From Bacillota bacterium (GTDB lineage Bacteria; Bacillota; Limnochordia; Limnochordales; ZCTH02-B6), in NCBI GenBank assembly GCA_017577945.2, contig PKQS02000009.1:787-64786 (forward strand): 64,000 nt of DNA, written 5' to 3'. The translations under genes and the position numbers were made by a program. Under the pieces are notes generated by a model. It worked only from the letters and a program-made list of their open reading frames with translations. It ran no database searches and was not told the origin of the DNA. Shown one piece after another: positions 5,047 through 56,476 of the stretch (within the stretch, counting starts at the first letter, position 1; each line of letters opens with the position of its first letter).

Positions 5047-5073
5047 AATGGAACAAGTCACCGGTGGTATAAT
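5044..5073 (+). promoter_or_regulatory. lexA promoter, TTGAAT-18 nt-TGgTATAAT
   Basis: Consensus extended -10. It lies inside the ORF-track 'start' of lexA, which argues that the 5048 start is wrong. Confidence 0.65.
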
Positions 5074-5116
5074 GAACCCAACCAAACACCCTTTTAGGCC
5101 GAAGGAGTGCGGACTG

Positions 5117-15807: not shown

Positions 15808-17631
15808 TCAGCGGCGGCCGAACCGGCGTTCCAAGTCGAGTCGTCCCAGCTCAACCACGATGGGACGGCCGTGGGGACAGGCGAAGGGATTGTCCGCGCC
15901 CGCGAGCTGCCGGACGAGCGCGGCCATCTGCTCGGCGTCCAGCTCCTGCCCGGCTTTCACCGCCGCGCGGCAGGCCAGCGACGCAGCCGCGGCGTGCGGG
16001 TTCCAACGGCCCTCGCGCTCGCACGCGAGCAGCAGCTCCTCCAGCGTCTCCGCCAGGCGCCGCTCGTCCGCGCCGGCAAGCTCGACCGGCACCCCGCGCA
16101 CCAGGTACGACGCCCCGCCGAAAGGTTCCAGCAAAAAGCCGAGGCGTTCCAGCGGCCCCGCGTACTGCTCGGCCAAGCCGACCAGGGACGGCGGCAACGT
16201 GACCGCGACGGGGATCAAGAGACGCTGCACGTCCCTTAGGCCCGTGGCCAGCGCTTCGAGAAAGCGCTCGTACAGCACCCGTTCATGGGCCACGTGCTGA
16301 TCGATAATCCAAAGCCCGTCCGCGGTTTCGCCCACAATGTACGTGCGGTGCAGCTGTCCCAAAATGCGCAGCGCCCGCAGCTGCTCCCGCGCGTCGGCCG
16401 GCGGCGACGCTGCGTCCGGCAAAGGTGCCACCCCGGCACCTGCGTGGCTGTGCGAAACCGCTTCCGGCTGCGGCCAAATGGGGCGCTCCTCGGCCGCGCG
16501 CGGCGAGCCAGCCAGCGCGCCGGATGCCGGCAACGCAATCAGCGGAGCGGACGAGTGCCGGGCCGGCGGCGCGGACGGACCTTGTACGCCCGGCCCGGCC
16601 GCTTCCAGGGGGCGAGCGCGGGTCACGGGTTGGATTAAGTCCGTCCCCAACAGCGCCTCGCGCACCGCCCGCATGACCGCGCGAAATACGGCCCCTTCGT
16701 CCTTGAAGCGCACTTCCGCCTTCGCCGGGTGGACGTTCACGTCCACCGCGGCCGGATCCAACGTCAGGTGGACGACGGCCAACGGGTGGCGGCCGTGAGG
16801 CAGCATCGTGTCGTATCCTTGCTCGATGGCGCGCAGCAGCGCGGCGCTCTGGATCCAGCGGCCGTTGAGAAAGACGGACATCCGTTCCCGGTTGCCGAAG
16901 ACGACGTCCGGCTTGCTGACCCACCCGGACACTTGCACGCCGTTCAGTTCGCCCGCAATGGGCACCAGCTCCCGCGCCGCCGCGCCGTACACGGCCCGGA
17001 TAGCCCCGGCCAAGTCGCCGTCGCCCGGCGTGGCGAACACCTGCCGGCCGTCCGCGACGAGTCGAAAAGCCACCTGCGGCCACGCGAGGGCGATGCGCGC
17101 CGCTACATCCGCGATGCGCCGGGCTTCGGCGGATTCGGAGCGCAGGAACTTGTAACGGGCGGGTGTGTTGAAGAACAGCCGGCGCACGACGACCGTCGTG
17201 CCCACCGGTGCCCCGGCGGGCTCCAGTTCGCCCGGCACCCCGCCGCAGACTACGTACCGCACGCCGCCCGGGGCGTCCGCCGTGCGCGTCCGCATTTCCA
17301 CTTCGGCTACGGCGGCGATGCTCGGCAACGCCTCGCCGCGAAAGCCTAACGTGGCCACGTTGAACAAGTCGTCCGCCGAGCGGATTTTGCTGGTGGCATG
17401 GCGAGCAAACGCCAGCGGCACCTGCTCCGCCGGGACGCCGGCGCCGTCGTCGGTGACCCGGATGTACTCTTTTCCGCCCCGGCGAATCTCGATGTCGATG
17501 CGCCGGGCGCCCGCGTCCAGCGCGTTTTCCACCAGCTCTTTCACGACCGACGCCGGCCGCTCGATGACTTCGCCCGCCGCAATCTTGTTGGCCACATCGG
17601 CGTCCAGGATACGGATCTCGCGGCCGGACAT
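15808..17631 (-). CDS. mutL: DNA mismatch repair protein MutL (endonuclease type)
   Basis: GHKL ATPase N-terminus (VVKELVENALDAG) and IIDQHVAHERVLYE endonuclease motif. Confidence 0.97.
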   Translation of the reverse strand: MSGREIRILDADVANKIAAGEVIERPASVVKELVENALDAGARRIDIEIRRGGKEYIRVTDDGAGVPAEQVPLAFARHATSKIRSADDLFNVATLGFRGEALPSIAAVAEVEMRTRTADAPGGVRYVVCGGVPGELEPAGAPVGTTVVVRRLFFNTPARYKFLRSESAEARRIADVAARIALAWPQVAFRLVADGRQVFATPGDGDLAGAIRAVYGAAARELVPIAGELNGVQVSGWVSKPDVVFGNRERMSVFLNGRWIQSAALLRAIEQGYDTMLPHGRHPLAVVHLTLDPAAVDVNVHPAKAEVRFKDEGAVFRAVMRAVREALLGTDLIQPVTRARPLEAAGPGVQGPSAPPARHSSAPLIALPASGALAGSPRAAEERPIWPQPEAVSHSHAGAGVAPLPDAASPPADAREQLRALRILGQLHRTYIVGETADGLWIIDQHVAHERVLYERFLEALATGLRDVQRLLIPVAVTLPPSLVGLAEQYAGPLERLGFLLEPFGGASYLVRGVPVELAGADERRLAETLEELLLACEREGRWNPHAAAASLACRAAVKAGQELDAEQMAALVRQLAGADNPFACPHGRPIVVELGRLDLERRFGRR

Positions 17632-17643
17632 GGCGGTTCCCTC

Positions 17644-20250
<2,607 letters not shown>

Positions 20251-24538: not shown

Positions 24539-26122
24539 CTAGTTGGCGAACCCCAGCAGCAGCGCCAGAATGGCGGCGCCGATGCCCAGCGTTCCCATGC
24601 TGCGGGTGCGCTGCAGCTCTTCCTCGGTGCGCTGGCGGTAGGTGGAGAACTCGCTCTGCAGGTCCGCCAGCTGCCGCGCGAGCTGCTGTTCGCGCGCCAG
24701 CGTCAGCGCCAGCTGTTCGTCCAGCTCTCGGCGAACGCGCTCGGTCAGCGCCGCAATCTGCTCTTCGCTGGTACCCAGCACACCTTGCAGCGTGGCCAGT
24801 TCTTCCTGCACCCGCTGCAGCTCGCTGCGCAACTCGCCGTACTCGGCGTCCATGCGCGCCTGCAGTGTGTCGACGTCGGCCCGCAAGGCGTCCGCGGCCG
24901 TCATCACGTCGCGCACCGCGTCCGTAAGCGTTGCCGTGTGGCGCTCGACGATGCGCAAGTTGTCCCGCAGCTCCTGGATGCTCGTGTCCAGCATGGCGAG
25001 CATGGCGCGCAGCTCGGCGACGTCGTTGTCGAAGCGGCCGGTGTCGGACGCCGTCTGTTGTTCGAGAGCCGCCAGCGCCGCCGCCAGCGTCTCCAGCGCG
25101 CGGGTGTGCTCCGCGACGGCCGCGCGATGCTGCTCTACGTCCGCCTGCAAGCGGTGCACCGCCTCATCCAGCCGCGACGTCTCGGCCCGCACCTGTGCGA
25201 TGTCCTGCGAAAAGAGCGAAGCCTGCTGCTGCAGCCGCGCGCCGTACTCTTCCGTCAGCGCCGTTTGCAATTCGCCCAGCGCCGCCCGCAGTTCCGCCGT
25301 CGACTGGCGCACCGTCTCCAGCTGCGCCGCCAGCTCGTCGGTGCGCGCCTTGAAGGCCGCGTCCAGTTCGTTCAGGCGCAGGAACATGGCCGCGCCCTGC
25401 TCGCTCAGCCGGTTGTTCAACGGCACCAGCTCTTCGTCGATGCGCGCCTGCAGCGCCGCCAGCTGCGCCGCCAGGTCTCCGTAGGCGCGCGTTTGCTGTG
25501 CGAACTGCTCGTCCACCGCCACGCCATACGCGGCCAGCGTGTCCGTCACGGCGGCGTACAGCCCCTCGATGGATTGCTGCAGCTCGCTGCGCACCGCCGT
25601 CAGCTGGGCGGACAGCTGGGCCAGCCGCTCGTTCAGCGCCGCCACGTCAAGGTCGTGGCCGCTCAGCCGGCCTTCCGCCACTTGCAGCGCGCCGTCGATG
25701 CGCTCCAGCTCGAACAGAATGTTGTTCAGCTGTTCGTCGATGACGGCCAGCTGCCGCTGTGTCCGGGCCGTGATTTCCGCCAACTCCTCTCGCGCGGCGT
25801 ACCATTGCACCAGCTCGGCCCGGAACTCGGACTCCAGGCGACGCAGCAGCTCGATGTCGGCCGCCGTGCCGACTTGGACGCGGCCCGCCTGGATGTCCTC
25901 CAGCATGCGCGCAACCAACACCGCCAGGTCAAAGCGGCTGACCGGCTCGTCCCCCCGGAACAGCCCCTGGGCGTCCGTGGACAAGTAGCCCCGGGACAAA
26001 AGCGTCTGCACCGCCTCGTAGGCCCAGTGGCCCGGCGGCACGTCCGCCGTCTGGGCCGACGCCGCGCCGGCCAGCAACAACAGCAGCAAGCTGGTGAGCA
26101 ATCCTTTCCGGATCATCCTCAT
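24539..26122 (-). CDS. Signal peptide + single SLH domain + about 430-aa coiled coil + C-terminal TM helix protein (527 aa)
   Basis: Cleavable leader ending ASA-Q. SLH motif HWAYEAVQTLLSRGYL...FRGDEPVSRFDLAVLVARML. Heptad-rich, Q/A/E/L-dominated body. Last 20 residues are MGTLGIGAAILALLLGFAN. GGAGGAG SD. Confidence 0.8.
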   Translation of the reverse strand: MRMIRKGLLTSLLLLLLAGAASAQTADVPPGHWAYEAVQTLLSRGYLSTDAQGLFRGDEPVSRFDLAVLVARMLEDIQAGRVQVGTAADIELLRRLESEFRAELVQWYAAREELAEITARTQRQLAVIDEQLNNILFELERIDGALQVAEGRLSGHDLDVAALNERLAQLSAQLTAVRSELQQSIEGLYAAVTDTLAAYGVAVDEQFAQQTRAYGDLAAQLAALQARIDEELVPLNNRLSEQGAAMFLRLNELDAAFKARTDELAAQLETVRQSTAELRAALGELQTALTEEYGARLQQQASLFSQDIAQVRAETSRLDEAVHRLQADVEQHRAAVAEHTRALETLAAALAALEQQTASDTGRFDNDVAELRAMLAMLDTSIQELRDNLRIVERHTATLTDAVRDVMTAADALRADVDTLQARMDAEYGELRSELQRVQEELATLQGVLGTSEEQIAALTERVRRELDEQLALTLAREQQLARQLADLQSEFSTYRQRTEEELQRTRSMGTLGIGAAILALLLGFAN

Positions 26123-26161
26123 CGCTTCTCTCCTCCATGTCAGGCTGACCGAAAGTTCTCG

Positions 26162-28300
26162 TCAGCGGGCGTCGTCCCGCACGACGACGACGGCTTCTTG
26201 CACCACGACGTCCACCGCGGTGCCGTCTTCCGCCGCGATGAAGGCGGCCTGCGCCTCGGGGTCCAGGTACGGATGGTCGGCCACCGTCGCCAGCCGCAGC
26301 GCCGTCGTGCCGGGGCCCACGGCCCGGAAGCGGATGGCCGCCAGCGTGTCGCTCAGGCGAGCCGCCCCGCCTTCCGGCGCCCGGCTGCCGGCGATGCGCA
26401 CGACACCCCGTTCGTTGTCGACCATGGGCGTACGCCAGTCAAGCTTCGTCTCCTGCCCCGTTGCGGGATCGGCCACGACGAACGCCCGGCCGCGATCGAC
26501 GCCGAGGCGGCCGCCCAGCACTTGCAGGACGGACGGATCGAACCGCAGCTCCAGCGCCGCGCCGTAAAACTCCCGCACGTTTTCGGCGTGGATGTAGACG
26601 GTGAACAAGTCGCCCACGACCGCCTCCTTGCGTACGGCCGCCTCATCGTCCACGGTCACCCGCAGCACCGACTCCAGCAGCGGCACGGCCACGAAAGCCG
26701 TCGGCAACCGGCCGATGGACGCGTTGCTGGACGTCAGGCGCAGTGACACCGGCAAGTTGCCCACCACGCCCGTGGGAACCAAGTGCCAGGTGACCTCGAC
26801 TGTCTCGCCCGGCTGCACGGGACCGATGTAGCGCTCCGCCGCGCTGCCGCGGGCCAGCTGCAGGCCGAACACCGTGTCCAGGCGGGCCACCACATCCTCC
26901 GCCACCAGCTGGCCGACGTTGGTGATCCGCGCCGTCATGGGCAGCGGCACGTTGCCCCAGCGGCCGTCGCGGACCGTGATCTCGCCGTTGGGCAGGGCCG
27001 CCTCCAGGGCCGCCGGCGCGATGACGACCACCGTGCGGTCGACTCGGTTCGGATCCGCGTTGCTGGAGGTCACCGAGACCCGGTACGTGAACGAACCCGA
27101 CGAACCGGCCGGCACGGCCACGCGCCAGGTGACCTGGCGAGAGTCGCGCGGCGCCAGGTCGCCCAGGGCCACCGACGCCGGACCCTCCACAATCCGCAGC
27201 GGCGCGAGATTTTCCAGGCGCACCACCGTGTCCCGCGCGATCCATTCGCCGGTGTTCTCGATGTACGCCCGCACTTCGAAGAGGACGTCGCGGTTGTGGC
27301 TGCCTTCCACCGACGCCGGCGACGTGACGCCGACCGACAGGTGGCCCGGCGCGATGGTGATGCCGCCCAGGCCGTAGTACGTCACGTATGTCCGCGTCTC
27401 GCCCGGCGCCAGCGGCCGTTCATACCAGAAGAGCGCCACCGCGCTGTCCAGCGCGAACTCTTCCCCGGCGCGCGTGAAGTCGCGCCCGGGCACGAAGTCG
27501 AACTCCCACACGCCGTCGGCCAGGCTGCCCCAGTTGGTGAAGTACACTTCGTCGGGAACCGTGGTGTCCAAGGCGCGCAGCGTGCCCTGCGACACGACTT
27601 GCGGATTGGCCAGCGAGTCAAAGGCCTGGTAGTAATCGGGGATGCTGTCGCCGCGGAACGCCGTGTCCGTCAGGATGGCCCGCCCGGCCGCCTGGAACGG
27701 CGCCCCGTCGTTGCGGCCCAGCAGCGTGTCGAGCATGAGCCGCAAGCCGACGTTCACCGTCGTCGTCCCGGTGTTGGTGATCCGGTACTCGATGCGCGCC
27801 GTGTCCGGCCGCCCCGTGGTGATGCCCGGGGCGATGCTGAGGATTTGGGTGACGACGATGTCGCCTGCGCGCCAGACCGTATGGATTTCGCGTCCTTCGT
27901 GGATAAACGGCTTCTCGACGACTTCGCCGTACAGCCCTAAACGGCCGGCCCGCCGCCCCGTAGGGCCGCCGAACACGTAATTGACTCCGTTAATGCGCAC
28001 GGTCGTATACGACGTCCACGGTCCCGGCGGCTGTTCCGTGCCGAAAATGAGCGGGCGGTTCTCATCGCCGACGCGCTCGGGATCGCCGCCCGTGGTGTTG
28101 ACGGAAAAACGCCCGGTGTCCTCGTCGCGCGCGTTGACGACGATGGCGATGAACTCGTTCTCCAACACGACGCTGTCGCCGACGCGGCTTTGCAACTGCT
28201 GCGCGCCGGCCGCTGCGCCGCATGCCAGCAAGAGTGCCACGGCGCCCAGCAGCGGGACCAAGCGGCGACGACGAGCCCTGTTGCGTCCGTGTTCCGTCAC
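26162..28300 (-). CDS. Secreted multi-domain beta-rich protein with CARDB/NEW3-like repeats and a C-terminal cohesin-like domain (712 aa)
   Basis: Arg-rich signal peptide. Repeated 'PGE/DS..V.W.V..P.G' Ig-like modules. GDLFTVYIHAENVREFYGAALELRFDPSVLQV matches the type-I cohesin core pattern. GTG start with AAGGAG. Confidence 0.65.
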   Translation of the reverse strand: MTEHGRNRARRRRLVPLLGAVALLLACGAAAGAQQLQSRVGDSVVLENEFIAIVVNARDEDTGRFSVNTTGGDPERVGDENRPLIFGTEQPPGPWTSYTTVRINGVNYVFGGPTGRRAGRLGLYGEVVEKPFIHEGREIHTVWRAGDIVVTQILSIAPGITTGRPDTARIEYRITNTGTTTVNVGLRLMLDTLLGRNDGAPFQAAGRAILTDTAFRGDSIPDYYQAFDSLANPQVVSQGTLRALDTTVPDEVYFTNWGSLADGVWEFDFVPGRDFTRAGEEFALDSAVALFWYERPLAPGETRTYVTYYGLGGITIAPGHLSVGVTSPASVEGSHNRDVLFEVRAYIENTGEWIARDTVVRLENLAPLRIVEGPASVALGDLAPRDSRQVTWRVAVPAGSSGSFTYRVSVTSSNADPNRVDRTVVVIAPAALEAALPNGEITVRDGRWGNVPLPMTARITNVGQLVAEDVVARLDTVFGLQLARGSAAERYIGPVQPGETVEVTWHLVPTGVVGNLPVSLRLTSSNASIGRLPTAFVAVPLLESVLRVTVDDEAAVRKEAVVGDLFTVYIHAENVREFYGAALELRFDPSVLQVLGGRLGVDRGRAFVVADPATGQETKLDWRTPMVDNERGVVRIAGSRAPEGGAARLSDTLAAIRFRAVGPGTTALRLATVADHPYLDPEAQAAFIAAEDGTAVDVVVQEAVVVVRDDAR

Positions 28301-28333
28301 GATGCTCCACTCCTTGTCGCCGGAACTAACCCG

Positions 28334-29404
28334 TCACCGGCGTTCGACGAACTGCGGCTGCGGCTGCCAGACGGTCTGCCCTTCCTGGGAGCCCGTCGTG
28401 AACGTGACGCGCCACACTTCCACGTACGGCGACCCCGTGGCTTCAAACGACCAGCGCTCCATCAGGCCCACCAGCGCCTCGTCCACCATGTCGCGGCCCG
28501 AAGAAGCCAGCAGGACCACTCGTTCGACGCTGCCGTCGGCCCGCACGTAAATCTCCACCTGCACGTCGCTCAGCCGGACGTCCAAGGGCGTGTCTTCCAC
28601 CGCCTTCGGGCGGCCGAAGCCGAAGCGAGTCGCAAAGCTGACTCCCGCCGGTCCACCCGGCTGGGTTCCTTGCCCATCGACGGTGCCTTCCGGCGCGCCC
28701 TGGACCACCTCGTCGCCCGGTTGCGCCGCTCCCGGCGCGCCGTCGCCGGCGCCGGGCGCAACGTCCGCGGCGGCTTCCGGCTCAGGCTGCCGCGCCACCT
28801 CGGGAGCCGGCTCCGGCACAGGTTCGGGTTCCGGCTCAGGCTTCGGCGCCGGCTCGGGCTCCAGCGCCGCCGCCACCTCGAACGTGCCTTGCTCGCTCAC
28901 GAGAATGTCCTCGGCGACGCCCGGCTCCGGTTCGGCTTCAGGCTGCGGGGCGGGCGCAGGGGCAGGCTCCGGCTCAGGCCGGGGAGCCGGCGCCGGCTCC
29001 GGTTGGGGTGCGGGCCGGGGCTCCGGCTGCGGCGCGGGCCGCGGCACCGCCGCGACCGCAGGCGCAGGCGGTGCGGCCGGCTGCACCTGCTGCTGTTCCG
29101 TCCGCACGGCCACCGCGGCTTGCGGCTCGGCCGGCTGCGGCGCCTGCTGCTGGCGCGGCGGGCGGGGCTGCACGGGCGCCGCCGGCGTCGGCGCCGGGGG
29201 CGCCTGGATTGCCGACTGTCCTGGCACGAAAACGAACTCCACCAGGCCGCCGTCCGCAGGGCCGAACCAGCCGATGCCGTACAGGGAGCCTTCCATCTGC
29301 GGCCACAGCCAGATGAACAGCGCGTGCAACACGACCGAGATTAGGAGAAACCAGCCGAAACGAGACTGTTCCTCGTATTCGTCGGTGAACACCGGGCGTC
29401 TCAC
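28334..29404 (-). CDS. TonB/TolA-like energy transducer (356 aa)
   Basis: N-terminal TM with the SxxxH motif (LISVVLHAL), about 140-aa Pro-rich spacer, and a TonB_C-like end ([38 protein letters not shown]). Confidence 0.8.
28775..29203. repeat. Low-complexity Pro/Glu/Ala coding repeats (PEPxPAP units) inside the TonB-like gene
   Basis: Reiterated ccggctccgg / ggctcaggc units in the DNA. Translation reads [39 protein letters not shown]. Confidence 0.8.
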
Positions 29405-29462
29405 CTGCCTTCCCTGGCCTGCAGGCCCGCGCGCCGCCCACGGCGCTTCTTCTCACGAGCGT

Positions 29463-29876
29463 TCACGGCAGCCGTTCCACGCTCAGCGCCAGCCGGCCAG
29501 CGCCTCCTAAGCGGGCCGCGTCGATGGCCCTGACCACGTAATCGTACGACACGCGGCGATCCGCCGAAATGATCACGATGGTATTGGGATTCGAAAGCAA
29601 CGCGCTGCGGACGCGCGCTTGGATGTCGCTCTCGGAAACCGCCACCCCGTTGACGAACATCGTTCCTTGCTGCGTCACCGTGATGCGCAGCTCCGCCTGC
29701 TGTTGAACCGTCCCCGTCGCGGCTCGCGGAAGGGCGACGTCGATGCCCAGCGGTTCGGTCCGAAACGTCGTGGACACCAGCAAAAACGCGACCAAGGTGA
29801 ACATGATGTCAATCAGCGGCACGATGTTCGGGCTCGGTGAGCGCCGTCGCTCGCGAACGATGGCCACGTCACTCAC
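29463..29876 (-). CDS. ExbD/TolR family biopolymer transport protein
   Basis: NIVPLIDIMFTLVAFLL TM with the conserved Asp. Periplasmic domain pattern ISADRRVSYDYVVRAID. Confidence 0.9.
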   Translation of the reverse strand: MSDVAIVRERRRSPSPNIVPLIDIMFTLVAFLLVSTTFRTEPLGIDVALPRAATGTVQQQAELRITVTQQGTMFVNGVAVSESDIQARVRSALLSNPNTIVIISADRRVSYDYVVRAIDAARLGGAGRLALSVERLP

Positions 29877-30483
29877 CCCGCATCGTGCTGATGATTTCCA
29901 AAATCTCCGCGGTGCGCCGGTTCATGTCGGCCACCCGCCGGTCGATGATGCTGCTGAGCCAGTGGTACACCGCCATCGCCGGAATGGCGATGCTCAAGCC
30001 GGCGGCCGTGGTAATGAGCGCCTCCGCAACGCCTAGGCTGAGGTCTTGCGGCGTGGCCAGGCCTTCCAGTGCGCCGAGGACGTTGAAGCTGCGGATGATC
30101 CCCGTGACGGTGCCCAGCAGCCCGAGCAGCGGCGCGATGTTGACGACGGTCTCCAGCAAGACCATCCGGCGTTCCATCTTAAACAGCTCGGCCCGGCCCA
30201 CGTCCTCCAGCTTTTCCTTCAACTGGTCCAAGGGCAAATCGGAATACGCGACGGCCGTCGCGATCAAAGCGGCCACCTGGCTCTTGGACCGCTTCGCCAC
30301 CTGCACGGCTTGCATCACTTTGCCCTGGGTCAGGTTGAGCCGGACCTCGTCCATCAGGTCGTCGGAGTCCACCCGCGTGCTGAAGAAATACCAAAGCCGC
30401 TCCAGCGACACCGCCAGAGCCAGCACGGAGATGAACAGCAGCGGGATCATGACCGGACCGCCCTTGACGATTATGTCGACCAT
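29869..30483 (-). CDS. MotA/TolQ/ExbB proton-channel family protein
   Basis: APLLGLLGTVTGIIRSF and GVAEALITTAAGLSIAIPA signatures. 8-nt overlap with the exbD-like gene. Confidence 0.9.
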   Translation of the reverse strand: MVDIIVKGGPVMIPLLFISVLALAVSLERLWYFFSTRVDSDDLMDEVRLNLTQGKVMQAVQVAKRSKSQVAALIATAVAYSDLPLDQLKEKLEDVGRAELFKMERRMVLLETVVNIAPLLGLLGTVTGIIRSFNVLGALEGLATPQDLSLGVAEALITTAAGLSIAIPAMAVYHWLSSIIDRRVADMNRRTAEILEIISTMRGE

Positions 30484-31278: not shown

Positions 31279-32034
31279 TTACGAAGCGGATCCGAGCGTT
31301 TCGCGAAAAAACTGCAAAATCCGGCGTTCCGAGCGTGACACGTGCGCCTGGGAAACGCCCAGGGCCCGGGCCGTTTCGGCCTGGGACTTGTCTTCGAAAA
31401 ACCGGAGAACGACCAACCTGCGCTCCCATTCCGACAGCCGCGCCAGCGCGGCGTGCAGGGCGACGTTTTCCACCAGCCGCTCCCAGTCTTCGCCGCCGGC
31501 CAGGCGGTCTCCGAGCGAGACGGCGTCGCCGTCGTCAGGATACAAGGGCTCGTCCAGCGACGTGACCGCCCGCGCCGCCACGGCCGCCGCCACTTCCTCG
31601 GCGTCGACGTTCAGCTCGGAGGCGATCTCCCCCACCGTCGGCTGCCTCTCCAGGCGAGCCGCCAGCCGCTCCTCGCAAGCCGCCACTTCCCGCTGCAGGC
31701 TCGCGAGCCGCGCGCCCAGGTGCAAGGGACTCCGCTGCCGGCGCAGATATTGCCGCATCTCGCCCATGATGACCGGCACCGCGTAAGTGGAAAAGCGCAC
31801 CTCGTAGGCGGGATCGAAGCCGTCGATGGCTTTGATGAGGCCGATGCAGCCTACTTGAAACAAGTCGTCCAGGTCAACGCCGCTGGTGCGAAAGCGCTGC
31901 GCCACCGCGGCCACCAGCCGCAAATTGGCCCGCACCAGCTCCTCCCTGGCCGCCGCGTCGCCCGCCTGCGCCTGTGCGATGAGCCGCCGCGTTTCGTCCG
32001 GCGCACCGGCCGCCGTGTCCGGCACCTGGGCCAC
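31279..32034 (-). CDS. sigF: Forespore sigma factor SigF
   Basis: Group-3 sigma (FSTYAVPVIMGEMRQYLR) directly downstream of spoIIAA-spoIIAB. Confidence 0.9.
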   Translation of the reverse strand: MAQVPDTAAGAPDETRRLIAQAQAGDAAAREELVRANLRLVAAVAQRFRTSGVDLDDLFQVGCIGLIKAIDGFDPAYEVRFSTYAVPVIMGEMRQYLRRQRSPLHLGARLASLQREVAACEERLAARLERQPTVGEIASELNVDAEEVAAAVAARAVTSLDEPLYPDDGDAVSLGDRLAGGEDWERLVENVALHAALARLSEWERRLVVLRFFEDKSQAETARALGVSQAHVSRSERRILQFFRETLGSAS

Positions 32035-32049
32035 GGCCGCTCCCTCCGT

Positions 32050-32505
32050 TCACGGCGCCACCGCGGCACGGGCGGGCGTTTTCGTCATCGTCACCATCGT
32101 GCCCGCGTCCGGCTGGGAAGCGACCTCCAGCTTGTCCATGTATTCCTGCATAAATGTAAAGCCCAGCCCCATCCGCTCTCCGGGACGGCTTGTCCACTGC
32201 GCCTGCCGCGCCTGGGTCACGTCGGCGATGCCGACGCCGTAGTCGATAACCCGCAGCACGAACGAGCCGTCCGCGCCCAGGCCCAGCTCCAGGCGAACGA
32301 CGCCGTCTCCGTCCGGGTACGCGTGCACGACGACGTTGGACACGGCTTCCGACACCGCGACCTTGATCTCGTCCAGCTCGTCCAACGTAAAAGCCAGCTG
32401 CGACGCGAACATGGCCGCGGCCGTGCGGGCGAAAGCGACGTTCTCCGGCTTGGCGGGCAGCTCCATCGTCACGTAGTTGACAAACCGCTCCATGCCCGTC
32501 ACCAC
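32050..32505 (-). CDS. spoIIAB: Anti-sigma F factor / serine kinase SpoIIAB
   Basis: HATPase_c N-box (EAVSNVVVHAY) and G-boxes (DYGVGI, GLGF). GTG start overlaps the spoIIAA TGA (GTGGTGA). The ORF-track start at 32868 is over-extended. Confidence 0.9.
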   Translation of the reverse strand: MVTGMERFVNYVTMELPAKPENVAFARTAAAMFASQLAFTLDELDEIKVAVSEAVSNVVVHAYPDGDGVVRLELGLGADGSFVLRVIDYGVGIADVTQARQAQWTSRPGERMGLGFTFMQEYMDKLEVASQPDAGTMVTMTKTPARAAVAP

Positions 32506-32858
32506 GTCTCCCCCTCCCTGACCAGCGCCAGCGCCTGCTGCTTCGTCTCGGCCACGGCCAGCACGCGCAGCAGGCCCGCGAACTGGAGCACCCGCAGCAC
32601 GTTGGGGCGGAGCCCGAAGACGACCACTCGCCCGGCGCGCGTGGTCCGGATGTCCCGGCAGCGCCCCAGCAGCGCTCCTACCCCCGAACTGTCGATAAAC
32701 GTCACGCCGCGCAAGTCTAGGATCAAGTGCCGCAGCCGTGGGCCTTCCTCCAGCTCCTGCTGCACGCGCGCCCGGAACACGGGCGCCGTCCGCACGTCCA
32801 GCTCGCCGGCCAGCCGCACGATGAGGCTGTCTTTGCTGCGCGTCGTCTCGATGATCAA
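32499..32858 (-). CDS. spoIIAA: Anti-anti-sigma F factor SpoIIAA (STAS domain)
   Basis: DLRGVTFIDSSGVGALLG phospho-serine motif. TTG start with GGGGGTG SD. Confidence 0.9.
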   Translation of the reverse strand: MIIETTRSKDSLIVRLAGELDVRTAPVFRARVQQELEEGPRLRHLILDLRGVTFIDSSGVGALLGRCRDIRTTRAGRVVVFGLRPNVLRVLQFAGLLRVLAVAETKQQALALVREGETW

Positions 32859-33027
32859 GCCGCCGCACCCCCGATCACGATTTACAATCTTCTGTCTTAT
32901 TCGCCTATTTCCTGCCGGACGGGTGCGGCGGCCGTGCATTGGCCTGGGCGAGGCTAGCGCTGCGTTGGTACCAGCGAGCCTGGCACGGCGTTGGCCCGGG
33001 CGAGGCTGATGCGGTGAACACACCCCG

Positions 33028-37078: not shown

Positions 37079-37723
37079 CTAGCGCATCGGCAGCCACCGC
37101 GCTGCGGTGCCCATGAGCACGGGCGACACGTACGCCTCCACGAACGCCGCCGCCACCAGCGCCGCCCCGCTGGCGGCCAAAATCAGGACGAAACCGGCCA
37201 GGTGACGAAAGACGTTGACGTCGCGCCAGCCGGACAGCGCGCGCACCGCCGCACCCGCAAAGCTCAGCGCTGCGACGCCCGCCGCCAGCGTCGCCGGCAC
37301 CGCCAGCACGTTTTGCGGCAGCAAGGCGACCACGGCCAGCACGGCGCCCGCGAGCCAGCCGGCTTCGGCCAGGAACGCGGCGGCAAAGCCCAGCGAGAAG
37401 CCGCGCAGGAACACCACGGCCAGGACGCCGGGAGCACCGGCGATGGAAAGGCCGAGGGCGCCGATGAGAGCGAGGTGCTTCAAGATGTACTCGGACAGGG
37501 CGAAGCGCAGCACCTCGGCCGGCGGGGACGCGGGGCGGCTGCCCGCGCTGCGGAACAGCGCCTCCACCTCGCCGGCCAGCGCCGCACGCCCCTCGGGGTC
37601 GACCCGATCGACGGCCAGCGCCCCCGCCGCCAGCCCGGCGGCGAACGCCGCCACGACGCATACGAGCAGCGCCATGCGCCGGCGCACGTACCCGCGCAAG
37701 ACGTCGCCCCACCGGCGGCCCAC
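37079..37723 (-). CDS. spoIIM: Stage II sporulation protein M (214 aa after start re-call)
   Basis: Polytopic membrane protein with LPQNVLAVPATL (the SpoIIM/DUF95 'HGxxE'-region equivalent). GTG 37723 has GGGGGAG 7 nt upstream. The ORF-track start at 37966 overlaps the upstream gene. Confidence 0.7.
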   Translation of the reverse strand: MGRRWGDVLRGYVRRRMALLVCVVAAFAAGLAAGALAVDRVDPEGRAALAGEVEALFRSAGSRPASPPAEVLRFALSEYILKHLALIGALGLSIAGAPGVLAVVFLRGFSLGFAAAFLAEAGWLAGAVLAVVALLPQNVLAVPATLAAGVAALSFAGAAVRALSGWRDVNVFRHLAGFVLILAASGAALVAAAFVEAYVSPVLMGTAARWLPMR

Positions 37724-37790
37724 GGCCGCTCTCCCCCTTCGCCCCAGGGCGTGGCGTTCTCCGCTTAGGCTTATGCACCCCGGCCTTTCC

Positions 37791-48087: not shown

Positions 48088-49794
48088 TCACTCTTCCTCT
48101 TGCTTCAGCAATTCGGCCAGCGCCTTCAAGTCTTTGACGACCCGCTTGGGACGCTTCTTGTCGTCCTTGTCCGCGCGCTGGCTCGGCGCGGGCCTGACAG
48201 CCACCTGCTTGAGAACGCCGGCCAACTTCTCCGCGAGCGGGTTGCCCACCGACTCTTCGGGCCCGGCCACGTACACGGAAACGCTCCCGCCCGCGGCAAC
48301 GTCCTCTTCCTCGTCGTCCGAGCCGAACAGCGTCGGCAGCGGCTCGTCGTCCTCGCCCAGCACGTCGTCGAACAGTTCTTCCTCAAGCTCGCGCCGGGCC
48401 GGGCGCGCACGCCGCTTGGGCGCCGCCCGCTTCTCCAGCAGCTCTTCCTCCAGCTCTTCGTCGAGGTCTTCGTCCTCAGGCGGCAGCAGTTCCTCGGGCT
48501 CCTCGCGCTCTTCTTCCTCCGGGAACTCCTCAACGGGCGCCAAGTCCTCCTCCAGCACCTCGACCTCGGCGCCCGCCGGCGCCGGCTCCTCCACCGCCAC
48601 CTTCTCAGCCGCAGCCGCCGGCGCGGTCTCCGCCACGGCCGGCGCCGTTTCCGCCTCGGCCGCCTGCTGAGCCGCCCGCGCCGCCGCCTGCGCCGCCCGC
48701 TTCGCCCGCAGCGCCGCCTCGGCTTCCTCGAAGGCGCGCTGCGCCTCCAGCACCGCAAGCTCCGCCATCTGAGACTCGCTCTTGATGTCGATCTTCCAGC
48801 CGCACAGCCGCGCCGCCAGCCGGGCGTTTTGCCCCTCCTTGCCGATAGCCAGCGACAGCTGGTGATCCGGTACCACGGCGCGGGCGGACTTCTCCTCGTG
48901 GTTCAGGAACACTTGCACGACCTTGGCCGGGCTCAGCGCGTTGGCCACGAAGCGGGCCGGGTCCGGCGACCACTCGACGATGTCGATCTTCTCGCCCCGC
49001 AGCTCCTGCACCACGGCCTGCACGCGCGCCCCGCGCGGACCGACGCACGCGCCCACCGGGTCTACGTTGGGGTCGTGCGAGTACACCGCGATCTTGGAGC
49101 GGCTCCCGGGCTCGCGGGCCACCGCCTTAATCTCCACGATGCCGTCGTGAATTTCCGGGACCTCCAGCTCGAACAGCCGCTTCAGCAAGCCCGGATGCGT
49201 GCGGGAGATGTTGACGACGGGTCCGCGCGGCATCTGCCGGACCTCGGTGATGTACACTTTCAGGCGGGCGCCCGGCGCGTACGTTTCGCCCGGGATCTGC
49301 TCGCTGGGAATGAGCTGGGCTTCGATGCGGCCCAAGTCGACGACGACGTTGCGCTGGTTCATGCGCTGCACGACGCCGGTGACGATGTCGCCCTCGCGGT
49401 TGGCGTACTCCTCGTACAGCAGGTTGCGCTCCGCGTCGCGGATGCGCTGGATGACGACCTGTTTGGCCGCCCCCGCCGCGATACGGCCGAAGTCCCGCGG
49501 CGTCACTTCCACCTCAACTACGTCGCCGACCTGGTAGTTGGCGTTGATGCGGCGCGCTTCTTCGAGAGAAATTTCGGTCGCGGGATTTTTCACTTCTTCC
49601 ACGACGTCTTTCAGCGCGTACACGCGCATGCGGCCCGTCCGGTCGTCCAGCAGCACCCGCACGTTTTCCGCCGACCCGTAGTGCCGCTTGTACGCGGACA
49701 AAATGGCCGCCTCGATGGCCTCCACCAAGATCTCCTTGGGTATCCCGCGCTCCTTCTCCAGCTCGTTGAGCGCACCGACCAGTTCCAAGTTCAT
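48088..49794 (-). CDS. nusA: Transcription termination/antitermination factor NusA with about 220-aa acidic C-terminal extension
   Basis: NTD, S1, KH1 and KH2 recognisable up to ...KIDIKSESQ, followed by an Ala/Glu/Asp/Pro-rich tail. Confidence 0.96.
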
Positions 49795-50443: not shown

Positions 50444-53400
50444 CTAAAACAGCGTCAATTGATCCGTCTCCGGCAGCCCTTCCAGCGTGCCGTGGCGCCG
50501 CAGCGTGTCGATGACGCTCTTCGTCAGCCGCGCGCGCGTCCTTAGGTCGTCCACCGACGTAAACCGGCCTTGTTCGCGGGCTTGAACGATGCTCTCCGCC
50601 GCGGCGACGCCCACGCCGTTCAGGGAAATAAACGGTGGCAGCAAGCCTTCCGGTGTCACCCTAAAGCGGGTGGCGTCCGACTCGTACAGGTGCACGCGGC
50701 GGAACTTGATGCCGCGCGCCAGCGCTTCCAAGACCAATTGCATCGTCGACGCCACCGCCTTGTCGCGGGCCGTGGCGTCAGGGCCTTTGCGCTCGACGGC
50801 TTCGATGGCGCGCCGGATCGCGTCTTTGCCTTGCACCAGTAGCTCGGCGTCGCACTCTTCCGCCCGCACCGTGAACGACGCCGCGTAGAACGCCTCGGGG
50901 TAGTGCACTTTGAAGTAGGCGATGCGAAACGCCATCATGACGTACGCCGCGGCGTGGGCCTTCGGGAACATGTAGCTGATTTTCTGGCACGAATCGATGT
51001 ACCACGGCGGCAAGTCGAACTGGCGCATCAGCTCCACGTCTTCGGGCTTGAGCCCTTTCCCCTTGCGTACCTGCTCCATAATGCGGAAGGCGTTGCCCGC
51101 GTCCATTCCTTTTTGAATAAGGAACAACATGATGTCGTCGCGCGTCGCGATGACTTCCCGCAGCGTGGCCTTGCCTTCGCGGATTAAGTCCTGGGCGTTG
51201 TTGAGCCAGACGTTGGTGCCGTGGGACAAGCCGCTGATGCGGACCAGTTCGCCGAACGTCCGCGGCCGGGTGTCCTCCAGCATCTGCCGCACGAACGGCG
51301 TGCCGAACTCGGGAATGCCCAGCGTGCCCACGTCGCCGCCCACGTCGGCGGGCGTTAGGCCCAGCGACTCAAGGCCGCTGAAGATGGCCATCGTCGCCGG
51401 GTCGTCCAGCGGGATGCGGGTGACGTCGACCCCCGTCAGGTCTTGGAGCATGCGCAGGATGGTCGGATCGTCGTGGCCCAGAATGTCCAGCTTGACCAGA
51501 TTGTCCTCGAGGGCCGAGTAGTCGAAATGCGTCGTGATGACGCCGGCGCTGCGGTCGTTGGCTGGATACTGCACGGGCGTAAAGTCGTGGATGTCTTCCC
51601 CCTCGGGAACGACCACCAGGCCGCCCGGGTGCTGGCCCGTCGTGCGCCGCACGCCCGTGCAGCCCCGCACCAGGCGATCCACTTCCGCGGCTCGCGCCTC
51701 GACGCCGACGGACTCTAGATATTTCTTGACGTACCCGTACGCGGTCCGCTCGGCCAGCGTCGCAATGGTGCCTGCGCGATACACGTTCTCGCTGCCCAGC
51801 AACTGCTCGGCGTATTGGTGCGCCCGCGACTGGTATTCGCCGGAGAAGTTCAAGTCGATGTCGGGCACCTTGTCGCCGTGGAAGCCCATGAACGTCTCGA
51901 ACGGGATGTCGAAGCCGTCCTTGTCGAGCGGCGTGCCGCACCGGGGGCAATCGCGCCGCGGCAAGTCGATGCCGCATTGCACCGACCCGTCGGTGACAAA
52001 CTGGCTCCAGTGACACTGCGGGCACACGTAGTGGGGCGGTAGCGGGTTAACCTCGGTGATGCCGCACATGGTGGCCACTAGGGACGATCCGACCGAACCG
52101 CGCGAGCCGACCAAGTATCCGTCCTCGCGAGACTTTTGCACCAGCTTGTGGGCGATGTAGTACAGCGACGCGAAGCCGTTCGAGATGATGGAGCGCAGCT
52201 CCCGCTGCAGCCGCTCCTCCACGATGGGCGGCAACGGATCGCCGTAGCGCTTCCGAGCTGTCTCCTTGGCAATGCGCTCGATGGCCTCGGCCGCCCCCGG
52301 CAAGTTCGGCGCGTGCAGCCCTTTGGGCAGCGGCGCCATCTCCTCGCAGCGAGCCGCGATGGCATTGGTGTTTTCGATGACAACCTGGCGCGCCCGCTCC
52401 TCGCCCAAATAGGCGAACTCCTGCAGCATCTCCGTCGTCGTGCGGAAATACAGCGGCGTGGGCCGCTCCGACGTGGAAAACCCGTGGCCCGCCATGATGA
52501 TGCGGCGGAAAATCTCGTCCTCGGGGTGCAAAAAGTGCGCGTCGGAGGTGGCCACGACCGGCAACCCCAGCTCGTCGCCCAGCTGGACGATGAGCCGGTT
52601 GATGTTGCGCAGCGCTTCCTCGTCGGGCAGCGTGCCGTCCTCGATGAGGAAGCGGTTGTTGTCGATGGGCTGAATCTCCAGGTAGTCGTAGAACGACGCG
52701 ATTTCCCGCAGCCTCTCTTTAGGCTCGCCGCGCAAGATGGCTTGGAACAGCTCGCCCGCCTCGCAGGCCGACCCGATGATCAAGCCTTCGCGGCGCTTGA
52801 CGAGCTCGCTGCGCGGAATGCGCGGGTTCCGGTAGAAGTAGTGCAAGTGCGACAGCGAGACCAGCTCGTAGAGATGCTTCAGCCCTTTGCGGTTGGCGGC
52901 CAGGATGATGATGTGGTACGACCGTCCCTTTTCGTCCGCGTCGTCGGTCAAGTAACCTTCCATGCCGTAGATGAGCTTGATGCCCGCCTTCTTGGCCGCC
53001 TGATACGCCTCAGGGAAGGCGTGCACGACGCCGTGGTCCGTGATGGCCACGGCGGGGTGCCCCCAGGCCGCGGCCTGTTCGATGACCGCCTGGATGTCCG
53101 CCGCGCCGTCCAGGCTGCTCATCTTCGTGTGCAGGTGCAGCTCGACGCGCTTTTCGGGATGGTCGTCCGTCCGCACCCGCGGCGACGTCTCCGCGACGGC
53201 GGTGGGCGTAATGACCAGCTCCTGCGTAAACCGATCGATCTCGGCGCGCCCGCGCACTTTGACCCAGCGGCCTTCCTGCACCGGGGAGTTTTCAGGCAGT
53301 TCGCCGCGGACGAAGGCTTTGACGGTGATGGAATCGGTGCGGTCGGTGATGTCGAAGCTGAGCAGAAAGCCCCCCCGCACTTCACGGCTTTCCCACTTCA

Positions 53401-54013
53401 TCACTTCGCCCTCGACGACCACGTCCGGCCGGGGCGAACGCAGCTCCCGCAGCGGGGTCGGCATGCCGTCGACCTGCGGCTTAAACAGCGACGAGCCGTT
53501 CCCGTTGCCTTTTCCGTTGCCGTTGCCGGCGCTCCGGCGCGGCCGGCCTTCGCCGCCGTATCCGGCCTGCAAGATGCCGCCCGCGGCGGCCCGCTGCAAG
53601 ACCCGTTCAAGGTACTCGTCGTCGTCGGGCTCCTCGGCGTAAGGCGGCTCAGGCGGCGGCACCTCGAAGAACGGATCCCACGCCGTCGCGGCGGATTCGA
53701 CCGCCGCGGCGGCTTCGGAGGCGCCGGAGGCGCCCGCCCCGTTCCCCGACCCGCGGGGTGCAGCCTCGAACACGAACTGCAGCTCATCCACGCCCGTCAC
53801 TTGGCTGAGCAGGCGCTGTTCGAGCTTCTTCAGCGTCGCTTCGCCGATGGGCTTTTCGCCTTCCAGAACGACGCGCCATGCGCGCCTGGCCACGTCCACC
53901 TCCACCCGCCGCAAACGGGCCGCGGCCACGGCTTCGGTTTCCTCGGGGGAGAGACCCGGCAACAAGCGCGCCAGGGCGCCGGCCTCGTCCGGTTCGATAA
54001 TGTACACGCTCAT
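50444..54013 (-). CDS. polC: DNA polymerase III alpha, PolC type, lacking the inserted 3'-5' exonuclease domain (1189 aa)
   Basis: N-terminal OB fold, PHP motifs (ELHLHTKMS, ITDHG, ATSDAHF), PolC Zn finger (CPQCH...CPRCG), DIDLNFSGEYQ, KAHAAAYV, and a C-terminal ...PETDQLTLF. No DxETTG or other DEDDh motifs anywhere in the ORF. Confidence 0.93.
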   Translation of the reverse strand: MSVYIIEPDEAGALARLLPGLSPEETEAVAAARLRRVEVDVARRAWRVVLEGEKPIGEATLKKLEQRLLSQVTGVDELQFVFEAAPRGSGNGAGASGASEAAAAVESAATAWDPFFEVPPPEPPYAEEPDDDEYLERVLQRAAAGGILQAGYGGEGRPRRSAGNGNGKGNGNGSSLFKPQVDGMPTPLRELRSPRPDVVVEGEVMKWESREVRGGFLLSFDITDRTDSITVKAFVRGELPENSPVQEGRWVKVRGRAEIDRFTQELVITPTAVAETSPRVRTDDHPEKRVELHLHTKMSSLDGAADIQAVIEQAAAWGHPAVAITDHGVVHAFPEAYQAAKKAGIKLIYGMEGYLTDDADEKGRSYHIIILAANRKGLKHLYELVSLSHLHYFYRNPRIPRSELVKRREGLIIGSACEAGELFQAILRGEPKERLREIASFYDYLEIQPIDNNRFLIEDGTLPDEEALRNINRLIVQLGDELGLPVVATSDAHFLHPEDEIFRRIIMAGHGFSTSERPTPLYFRTTTEMLQEFAYLGEERARQVVIENTNAIAARCEEMAPLPKGLHAPNLPGAAEAIERIAKETARKRYGDPLPPIVEERLQRELRSIISNGFASLYYIAHKLVQKSREDGYLVGSRGSVGSSLVATMCGITEVNPLPPHYVCPQCHWSQFVTDGSVQCGIDLPRRDCPRCGTPLDKDGFDIPFETFMGFHGDKVPDIDLNFSGEYQSRAHQYAEQLLGSENVYRAGTIATLAERTAYGYVKKYLESVGVEARAAEVDRLVRGCTGVRRTTGQHPGGLVVVPEGEDIHDFTPVQYPANDRSAGVITTHFDYSALEDNLVKLDILGHDDPTILRMLQDLTGVDVTRIPLDDPATMAIFSGLESLGLTPADVGGDVGTLGIPEFGTPFVRQMLEDTRPRTFGELVRISGLSHGTNVWLNNAQDLIREGKATLREVIATRDDIMLFLIQKGMDAGNAFRIMEQVRKGKGLKPEDVELMRQFDLPPWYIDSCQKISYMFPKAHAAAYVMMAFRIAYFKVHYPEAFYAASFTVRAEECDAELLVQGKDAIRRAIEAVERKGPDATARDKAVASTMQLVLEALARGIKFRRVHLYESDATRFRVTPEGLLPPFISLNGVGVAAAESIVQAREQGRFTSVDDLRTRARLTKSVIDTLRRHGTLEGLPETDQLTLF

Positions 54014-54066: not shown

Positions 54067-54693
54067 TCAGTAATAGGCGCGCAAGATCTCCCAGTACATC
54101 CGCATGCGAGCGCGGAAGCCATTCCAGGCGCCAGCCTTTTCTTCCTTCATTACGTGGGCGAGCCCGCGCAGCCGCACTTGCTCGACCCGCAGCCCTTCCC
54201 GCTCGGCGTAGCGCGAGAGGACGATCTCCGCGCCAAACCGGGACTCATCCAGGTGCGGCACGTGTTCGACCACCTCGCGCCGGACCGCCCGCTGGCCAGT
54301 AAGATACGGCGCCAACCAGTGCGCGAAGTCGGTGGCGGCCCGGCCGGCCACGAACACGCCGATGGTCATGTCGGCTCGCCCGAACAGGACAGGTTCCACT
54401 AGCGCGCGGATATGTTCGTCGCGCAGGCCGACCAAGTCCGCGTCGAGGAACAGGATGATCTCGGCGTCGGTCTGCCGCACGCCCGCCAGCATGGCGCCGC
54501 CTTTGCCCACGTTGACGGGCAGCTCCACGACGGTGACGGGAAAGCGCCGCGCCACGGCCGCGGTGTCGTCCGTGCAGCCGTCGCAGACGACGATCACTTC
54601 GTCCAGCAGCGGATGGCGCACGACCCGCTGCAGCACCCGGCCGATGTTGGCTGCTTCGTTGTAAGCGGGAATGACCGCCGCCACTTTCGCCAT
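54067..54693 (-). CDS. Family-2-like glycosyltransferase (GpgS-like short form)
   Basis: AAVIPAYNEA start, NVGKGGAM, and the LDADL DxD motif. Confidence 0.75.
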   Translation of the reverse strand: MAKVAAVIPAYNEAANIGRVLQRVVRHPLLDEVIVVCDGCTDDTAAVARRFPVTVVELPVNVGKGGAMLAGVRQTDAEIILFLDADLVGLRDEHIRALVEPVLFGRADMTIGVFVAGRAATDFAHWLAPYLTGQRAVRREVVEHVPHLDESRFGAEIVLSRYAEREGLRVEQVRLRGLAHVMKEEKAGAWNGFRARMRMYWEILRAYY

Positions 54694-54751: not shown

Positions 54752-56476
54752 TTACTGCAGCTGTGCGAGCGCCTCGGCGATCCGGGCCCGGACGAAGGAG
54801 GCCGCCTCGCCGACGGGCACCAGCTGCTGCAGCGCCCCGTCGCGGCTGGTCACTTCGACGGCGCCTTCGGCCAGCGACCGCGGACCCACCGTGATCCGGT
54901 ACGGGAAGCCGATCAAGTCCGCGTCGTTGAACTTGACTCCGGCCCGCTCGTCCCGGTCGTCCAGCACCACTTCAACGCCGTCCGCCAGCAGCTGCTCGTA
55001 CAGCTCCTCGGCCACCTGCCGCTGCTGCGCGTCGTCGTACTTGACCGGCACGATGACGACGTGGTACGGCGCCACCGAGACGGGCCAGCGGATGCCTTTC
55101 TCGTCGTGGTGCTGCTCGATAATCGCGGCCATCGTCCGGCTGATGCCGATGCCGTAGCAGCCCATGACGATGGGCTTGGACTGGCCGCTTTCATCCAGGT
55201 AGGTTGCCCCCAGCGCGGCGGAATACTTGGTGCCGAGCTTGAAAATTTGTCCCACTTCAATGCCGCGCGCCGACGCCAGCGGCTGGCCGCAATGCACGCA
55301 CGCGTCGCCCGGCCGCACCGTGCGAATGTCGGCCACCACGTGGGCTTGCCAGTCCCGTCCGGGCGCGACATGCATCATGTGCTTGTCGGCGGCGTTGGCC
55401 CCGGCGACGGCATCGCGCACGGCCCACGCCCACGGGTCGGCCACGATGCGCACGCCTTCCAAGCCGATCGGACCGGCGAACCCCACGGGTGCACGGGTGA
55501 CGCGCTCGATGACCTCGGCCGGCGCCATGACGACCTCGGTGGCGTCCAAGGCGCGCCGCAGCTTCACCGGATTGACGTCGTGATCGCCCCGCACCACCGC
55601 GGCCACGGGTTGTCCGTCCACGAGGAAGATCAACGTCTTCAGCAGCCGCCGGGTCTCCACCCCCAGCATGGCCGCCACTTCCTCGATGGTCCGGGCGCCG
55701 GGCGTGTCCACCACGCGGGCCGGCGGAACATCGCCGGCGTCCTCGCTTTCCGGAGGCGGCGCGCTCGCGGCCTTTTCCGTGTTGGCCGCGTAGTCGCACG
55801 CCGTGCAGTAGACGATTTCCGCCTCGCCGGCGTCGGCCAGCACCATAAACTCGTGCGTGACGTTGCCGCCGATGGCCCCGGGGTCCGCCTCCACGGCGCG
55901 CACCTTCAGGCCGCAGCGCGCGAACACCCGCTCGTAAGCCTCGTACATCTTCCGGTACGAGACGTCCAGCCCCGCCTCGTCCCGGTCAAACGAATACAAA
56001 TCTTTCATGATAAACTCGCGGCCCCGCAGCAAGCCGAAGCGGGGGCGGACTTCGTCGCGGTATTTGTTCGCGATTTGGTAGAGCAGCAGCGGCAGCTGCC
56101 GGTACGACCGCACTTCGGCCCGCACCAGCGTCGTGATGAGCTCCTCGTGGGTGGGACCGAGGCAGAACTCCCGCCCGTTGCGGTCCTTGAGGCGGAACAT
56201 CTCCTCGCCGTATTCATCCCAGCGGCCCGATTCCCGCCAAATCTCCGCGGGCTGCACGATGGGCATCAGCAATTCCTGGCCGCCTTTGGCGTCCATCTCC
56301 TCGCGGACGATCTGCTCAATCTTGCGCAGCACGCGCCACGCCAAAGGCAAGTACGTGTAGATGCCGGCGGCGGACCGGCGGATAAACCCGGCGCGAAGGA
56401 GCAATTGGTGGCTGGCGATCTCCGCCTCGCCCGGCGTTTCCCGCAGGGTCGGCGCCAGCAGCTGCGACATGCGCAT
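54752..56476 (-). CDS. proS: Proline--tRNA ligase (bacterial type with INS editing domain)
   Basis: [15 protein letters not shown] start and class II motifs ([15 protein letters not shown]). Confidence 0.97.

Follow-up and report, generated by a model that had tools for sequence, protein, structure and literature searches.

In its canonical form (B. subtilis, S. aureus, E. faecium 9qpc), the replicative DNA polymerase PolC carries a DEDDh exonuclease of ~210 aa between the third and fourth strands of its PHP domain (PMC12592400). Timinskas, Balvociute, Timinskas and Venclovas (Nucleic Acids Res 2014) put at 6% the PolCs that 'lack the Exo insertion', and reported that these enzymes occur exclusively in Clostridia and Negativicutes, with the exception of one extra copy in Thermotogae, and always together with DnaE1, and that the PolC PHP metal site is conserved (PMC3919608). 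More recently, a 2026 survey mapped PHP and DnaQ proofreaders on >3000 genomes, with Limnochorda pilosa in its genome list, and used the nine-ligand motif HHDHEH[C/H]DH as the criterion for an 'active' PHP (PMC12926913). Here we describe the polC gene found on a 64-kb stretch of DNA from a Limnochordales bacterium (Bacillota; assembly GCA_017577945.2, contig PKQS02000009.1, positions 787 to 64,786; hereafter the window, G+C ~68%). Its 1189-aa open reading frame (ORF) is a complete PolC without the inserted DEDDh exonuclease. Exonuclease-less PolC was already described in 2014, and the window adds a Limnochordales example. With a probability of about 0.6, we consider this PolC to be an orthologous member of the described exonuclease-less subgroup, in which a short loop closes the PHP barrel and in which proofreading, if any, is performed by PHP.

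The ORF exceeds the curated whole-protein cut-offs of both PolC equivalog models, with 1497.1 bits for NCBIfam NF001688 (cut-off 873) and 1403.5 bits for TIGR01405 (cut-off 1043). Pfam domains follow one another in the order OB (198-267), PHP (291-442), polymerase core (577-768), fingers (849-987) and helix-hairpin-helix (HhH, 1101-1181). This order is PolC-like, with the OB fold N-terminal to PHP and the HhH at the C-terminus, and without the C-terminal OB fold and C-terminal domain (CTD) of DnaE-type enzymes. The AlphaFold model has a mean predicted local distance difference test score (pLDDT) of 88.9, and its best structural match is 3f2b_A (template modelling (TM) score 0.96, root-mean-square deviation 2.1 Å). 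An earlier interpretation made from the letters of the DNA alone (the sequence-only reading) had called the ORF PolC-type, and both models and the domain order bear this out. The elements of the gene are as follows:

50444-54013, minus strand: polC ORF, 1189 aa, identified by NCBIfam and Pfam, by PDB matches 3f2b and 9qpc and by the AlphaFold model
53753-54013, minus strand: N-terminal subdomain, aa 1-87, with a weak match to PF14480 (PolC N-terminus I; E=0.013, residues 26-80)
53495-53752, minus strand: low-complexity linker including GNGNGKGNGNG, aa 88-173, predicted disordered, pLDDT <50
53186-53431, minus strand: OB fold, PF01336 at aa 198-267, beta strands 195-276 in the model
52334-53149, minus strand: PHP domain, aa ~289-560, from Pfam PF02811 and motif positions
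52916-52957, minus strand: junction loop GYLTDDADEKGRSY, aa 353-366, 14 residues, between PHP ligands E352 and H367
51938-52024, minus strand: zinc finger CPQC...CPRC (C664, C667, C689, C692), by motif search
51854-51862, minus strand: polymerase catalytic aspartates D718 and D720 (PDIDLNF), by motif search
50471-50713, minus strand: C-terminal tandem helix-hairpin-helix, aa 1101-1181, Pfam PF14579, E=1.3e-11
50447-50461, minus strand: predicted beta-clamp-binding motif QLTLF, aa 1185-1189, by motif search

The OB fold, the zinc finger with its four cysteines and the C-terminal QLTLF, all named by the sequence-only reading, are thus located. A candidate third catalytic aspartate is D843, within KLDILGHDD; we take D718, D720 and D843 to be the catalytic triad by homology to D401, D403 and D555 of E. 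coli alpha. A motif of the form Q[LIM]x[LF]F is found at or a few residues from the C-terminus in nearly all full-length homologs.

The loop occupies the place where related homologs hold a DEDDh exonuclease of 212-214 aa. The codons of the two PHP ligands that flank it (E352, nt 52960-52958; H367, nt 52915-52913) are read in a single frame across the junction, and the sequences on either side, GYLxDD and R[ST]Y-H, are common to short-loop and exonuclease-containing PolCs. The residue blocks covering 351-370, loop included, have mean pLDDT values of 92-93 in the AlphaFold model. As the sequence-only reading had proposed, the PHP domain therefore runs through the junction in a continuous frame, with 14 residues at 52916-52957. 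Matches to longer PolCs break at the same point. The match to a full-length PolC profile of 1445 positions is split, resuming from query residue 361 onward at profile position 610 onward, and in the alignment to E. faecium PolC 9qpc (1474 aa) chain residues ~433-631 remain unpaired. Conversely, the crystallised G. kaustophilus PolC construct (3f2b/3f2c/3f2d) is colinear with the window PolC, with 54% identity and the TM score given above, and its artificial GSGSG linker coincides with the exact position of the natural 14-aa loop. The deletion in that construct is artificial, the exonuclease having been removed for crystallisation (PMC12592400); the exonuclease is present in the native Geobacillus enzyme, whose PHP site has N at the position of D491 in the window PolC.

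Direct searches for the exonuclease were also negative. Pfam RNase_T/DEDD (PF00929) does not match the window PolC even at E<=0.1, and the regular expressions DxE[TS][TS]G and H[NS]Ax[FY]D do not match it either. A six-frame translation of the whole window, searched with a hidden Markov model (HMM) built from 18 exonuclease inserts of related PolCs, likewise gave no match (best E=8.9, filters off). The absence of Exo motifs from the ORF, first remarked in the sequence-only reading, is thus upheld by Pfam, by the 9qpc and 3f2b alignments, by the regular expressions and by the HMM. The same six-frame search ruled out a cryptic or frameshifted exonuclease remnant in the window. We also translated 80 related loci in six frames, each up to ±10 kb around polC, and searched them with the same HMM. 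No PolC-type exonuclease was found outside polC within 10 kb in these 80 loci, and the only matches lay inside exonuclease-containing polC genes. The exonuclease has therefore not been split off into an adjacent gene, and domain fission to a neighbouring gene was rejected as an explanation.

The 1189-aa protein appears to be reduced at a second place as well, judging from its domain matches. PolC N-terminus II (PF11490) has no Pfam match in it, and the linker of aa 88-173 sits between the N-terminal subdomain and the OB fold. The first 80 residues form a folded alpha/beta unit in the AlphaFold model, with 10-residue block means of pLDDT between 70 and 92. PF11490 is likewise absent from the precomputed Pfam lists of Limnochordia-named sequences and of the closest unnamed matches; many exonuclease-containing PolCs and some exonuclease-less ones (e.g. 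a Peptococcaceae-named sequence) do have it listed.

Several lines of evidence bear on whether the short ORF is a genuine gene. A cluster at >=90% identity holds ~10 independently assembled full-length copies of 1188-1189 aa (NCBI, JGI/IMG and ENA contigs), one of them named and annotated as 'PolC-type DNA polymerase III [Limnochordales bacterium]'. The same short-loop architecture is found in the complete genomes of Limnochorda pilosa (1211 aa) and Neomoorella thermoacetica (1214 aa). The ratio of nonsynonymous to synonymous substitution rates (dN/dS) of polC is 0.20-0.23 against three Limnochordales loci, which indicates that the gene is under purifying selection. An alignment of 60 exonuclease-less PolCs shows no variation at D718, D720 and D843, at the four cysteines of the zinc finger or at any of the nine PHP ligands. 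Finally, the gene sits among tsf, pyrH, frr, uppS, cdsA, dxr, rseP and proS upstream and rimP, nusA, ylxR, L7Ae, infB, ribF, rpsO and pnp downstream (all by Pfam), an order that we take to be that of B. subtilis and that includes the canonical Firmicute arrangement rseP-proS-polC-rimP-nusA. Its nearest assigned neighbours are:

54752-56476, minus strand: proS, upstream of polC, Pfam tRNA-synt_2b, tRNA_edit and HGTP_anticodon
49832-50371, minus strand: rimP, downstream of polC, Pfam RimP_N and DUF150_C
48088-49794, minus strand: nusA, downstream of polC, Pfam NusA_N, KH_5 and S1

No second C-family polymerase was found in the window or in the 80 related loci, the only additional match, a fragment in one of these loci (L064), overlapping that locus's own polC match. 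Because of the independent copies, the low dN/dS, the invariant residues, the structural model and the canonical locus, we conclude that the window gene is the orthologous primary polC, single-copy-looking within the 64 kb examined, rather than an artefact or a decaying paralogue. The sequence-only reading had raised both of the latter possibilities, as a missing segment of ~600 bp and as a decaying second polC. The one point in their favour is that the protein is of unusual length when set beside Bacillus PolC. Against an assembly deletion stand the ~10 independent assemblies of like length, the continuous frame and the recurrence of the loop across a clade of 72 members and in complete genomes. 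Against a pseudogene stand the dN/dS of ~0.2, the invariant catalytic residues, the canonical syntenic position and the lack of any second C-family polymerase in the window. We regard the chance of either as negligible, and both are effectively refuted.

Two features of the neighbourhood are worth recording. A family-2 glycosyltransferase gene (54067-54693, minus strand) lies between proS and polC and breaks the B. subtilis-like order. NusA, of 568 aa, has a long Ala/Glu/Asp-rich C-terminal tail after its KH domains (~aa 345-568) in which Pfam places no domain.

The exonuclease-less state is widespread among relatives of the window PolC. Among its 120 best homologs, a loop of 12-32 aa occupies the site in 101 and the 212-214-aa exonuclease in 18. 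Likewise, 75 of the 80 best loci in a species-level genome collection lack the exonuclease, including Limnochordales metagenome-assembled genomes at 67-77% identity to the window PolC and cultured Desulfosporosinus, Dehalobacter, Candidatus Formimonas, Syntrophomonas, Selenomonas ruminantium, Propionispora and Quinella; the closest relatives in that collection reach <=77% identity. We placed 251 full-length PolCs on a midpoint-rooted neighbour-joining tree, which is crude and indicative. The window PolC falls in a wholly exonuclease-less clade of 72 members, the named ones being Limnochordia, so that in the public sequences sampled the trait is fixed across this clade. Outside it, the exonuclease-less state is scattered, and this crude tree calls for a minimum of 19 changes of state.

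In other lineages the same PHP loop holds inserts of 61-291 aa, such as those of P0079, P0136, P0139 and P0227, which either escape the exonuclease HMM or no longer have the DEDDh residues. In eight PolCs of this kind (P0079, P0136, P0139, P0142, P0168, P0191, P0203 and P0227) the inserts measure 84-291 aa and the PHP site is still intact. They resemble degenerate remnants of the exonuclease, or perhaps domains that replaced it. A decay series is thus visible at one site across lineages, from intact exonuclease through degenerate insert to short loop, and the domain seems to have decayed repeatedly and to have been cleanly excised.

Compared with the exonuclease-less PolCs of Timinskas et al., the window PolC shares the OB fold, the uninterrupted PHP, the polymerase core, the HhH, the clamp motif and the lack of a DnaQ insertion, as well as the phylum and the conserved PHP metal site. 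Several taxa of that study were recovered here as relatives (Moorella, Thermanaeromonas, Desulfosporosinus, Dehalobacter, Syntrophomonas and Selenomonas). It differs in belonging to the Limnochordales (class Limnochordia), in having an undetectable N-terminus II and in a loop that is especially short and uniform (12-14 aa). The class Limnochordia was named after the 2014 survey, and our literature search found no paper linking Limnochorda or Limnochordia with PolC or dnaE. With canonical PolCs, the window PolC shares the HMM family, the locus, the zinc finger, the clamp motif and the core; it differs from them by the exonuclease. With Mycobacterium tuberculosis DnaE1 and Thermus Pol III alpha it has in common the nine-residue trinuclear metal site and the absence of an inserted DEDDh domain. 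These two are, however, DnaE-type enzymes with a C-terminal OB fold and CTD, at 22-23% identity and a TM score of ~0.55, and their PHP exonuclease has been demonstrated, whereas that of the window PolC is putative. The PHP-adjacent loop is 14 aa long in the window PolC versus 29 in M. tuberculosis, 18 in Thermus aquaticus and 9 in E. coli.

All nine metal ligands of the PHP site are intact in the window PolC (H293, H295, D302, H327, E352, H367, C417, D491 and H493; HHDHEHCDH), in agreement with the HLH, TDHG, GMEG and SDAH motifs picked out by the sequence-only reading. In Geobacillus and E. faecium PolC, D491 is replaced by N in our alignment, and Geobacillus PolC is reported to be without PHP exonuclease activity (PMC5636811). 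We then tallied the state of PHP against that of the exonuclease in the 150 best representatives at 50% identity, scoring those in which all nine ligand columns were aligned:

Exonuclease absent (loop <=40 aa): PHP intact in 29, broken in 4
Insert without intact DEDDh (degenerate or poorly aligned): PHP intact in 16, broken in 1
DEDDh intact: PHP intact in 54, broken in 39

An intact PHP is more frequent in the exonuclease-absent class than in the DEDDh-intact class (Fisher p=0.002, phylogenetic non-independence ignored), and pooling the non-DEDDh inserts into the absent class (45/5 vs 54/39) gives p=5e-5, again uncorrected for phylogeny. In numerical terms, these figures hint that the loss of both nucleases from one PolC is rare. 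There is also a precedent in vivo, in C. thermocellum, where the mutation rate was measured after a substitution of the C417Y kind in a PHP ligand; the place of that ligand in the nine-residue motif corresponds to C417 of the window PolC. Because the nine ligands are intact and because of this tally, proofreading in cis by PHP is favoured, and we infer that it is the most likely mechanism in the window PolC. The 3'-5' proofreading, if this enzyme has any, would be done by its own PHP trinuclear metal site, as in M. tuberculosis DnaE1 and Thermus Pol III alpha, and MutS and MutL would add post-replicative correction as a second layer of fidelity. Both genes are encoded in the window:

17644-20250, minus strand: mutS, Pfam MutS_I-V
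15808-17631, minus strand: mutL, Pfam DNA_mis_repair and MutL_C

They lie ~30 kb from polC, with miaA after them and a gene for a MiaB-like radical-SAM protein before them, and lexA is found at 5048-5728 (plus strand). Since mutS, mutL and lexA are all in the window, the lineage has mismatch repair and an SOS regulator.

Several observations weigh against PHP-based proofreading in the window PolC. In the nearest relatives that do contain the exonuclease, the PHP site is intact without exception (18/18), and for this reason its intactness in the window PolC is not specific evidence of compensation. In addition, four exonuclease-less representatives have a broken PHP; loss of both nucleases may be tolerated, or the four may be fragments or extra copies. 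Representatives of this kind, P0228 (1178 aa, with HRSLENSDQ at the ligand positions), P0225, P0254 and P0263, have neither an exonuclease insertion nor an intact PHP and so show no obvious nuclease; if they are extra copies, they would be comparable to the one in Thermotogae mentioned by Timinskas et al. Our literature search also found no exonuclease assay of any natural exonuclease-less PolC. The sequence-only reading had stated that proofreading must come from the PHP domain itself or in trans. This expectation seems reasonable and is in line with proposals in the literature, 'must' being too strong a word.

Supply in trans, by a stand-alone DnaQ-like DEDDh exonuclease encoded elsewhere or by a co-resident DnaE1, is a rival explanation. 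E. coli-type replicases use a separate epsilon subunit, and the PolC exonuclease of B. subtilis is said to act in trans as the proofreader of DnaE3 (PMC12926913). Bacterial proteomes hold on average >3 DnaQ homologs (PMC12926913), and in all Clostridia and Negativicutes with PolC there is reported to be a DnaE1 as well, whose PHP is perfect and whose epsilon-binding surface is conserved (PMC3919608). We nevertheless consider this arrangement unlikely for the window PolC: a PolC-type exonuclease is found neither in the window nor outside polC in the 10-kb surroundings of the 80 loci, and supply in trans would leave the retention of PHP in exonuclease-less PolCs unexplained. That same retention bears on another proposal, raised by Timinskas et al., in which DnaE1 is the bulk replicase and the exonuclease-less PolC an auxiliary polymerase whose lower fidelity is tolerated, with errors removed by MutS/MutL. 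Exonuclease-less PolCs occur only where DnaE1 is a partner, some Clostridia have only DnaE1 (PMC3919608), and the window itself encodes MutS and MutL. An invariant PHP nuclease site would be unexpected in such a low-fidelity helper, and the PHP site is reported to be disrupted in DnaE3 and most DnaE2 (PMC3919608), unlike in the window PolC. The canonical locus, the clamp motif and the strong purifying selection over the full length also speak against an auxiliary role, as does the presence of 50 of the 54 window genes on one strand, a bias that one report associates with genomes encoding both DnaE and PolC (PMC3814617). We judge the auxiliary role to be quite unlikely.

A further question is whether the exonuclease was lost in this lineage or never gained. 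Limnochordia are a deep-branching diderm class of Bacillota, and the 72-member clade that holds the window PolC contains no relic insert. If its short-loop PolC were the ancestral, pre-insertion form, PolC would have begun as a PHP-proofreading enzyme and gained the DnaQ domain later, with Limnochordia keeping the primordial state. However, the relic inserts at the same site elsewhere indicate that loss is a common direction, and the midpoint-rooted neighbour-joining tree places 'insert present' at the root. Ancestral absence therefore strikes us as very improbable.

Returning to PHP-based proofreading in an orthologous exonuclease-less PolC, the window adds little that is new in kind, as exonuclease-less PolC, its restriction to non-Bacilli Firmicutes and the idea of PHP proofreading have all been published (PMC3919608; PMC12926913). 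The natural exonuclease-less PolCs would nonetheless be convenient enzymes for the study of PHP proofreading in a PolC scaffold, and useful for understanding how replisomes with PolC and DnaE1 divide labour.

Outside the polC region, Rfam and tRNA scans of the window were empty. The strand carrying the 50 of 54 predicted genes is the minus strand, and the GC skew is negative in every 2-kb segment except the first. Two of the four plus-strand ORFs (31342-33009 and 37202-37768) have gene-like codon-position G+C and no Pfam match at E<=1e-5. On the minus strand, exbB and exbD (29463-30483) lie next to two large proteins that also have no Pfam match at this threshold (26162-28300, 712 aa; 28334-29404, 356 aa), and a coiled-coil protein with an SLH domain (24539-26122) adjoins this region. 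From its gene content, 24539-30483 may encode a TonB-like system or one that tethers the outer membrane, in keeping with the diderm envelope reported for Limnochorda.

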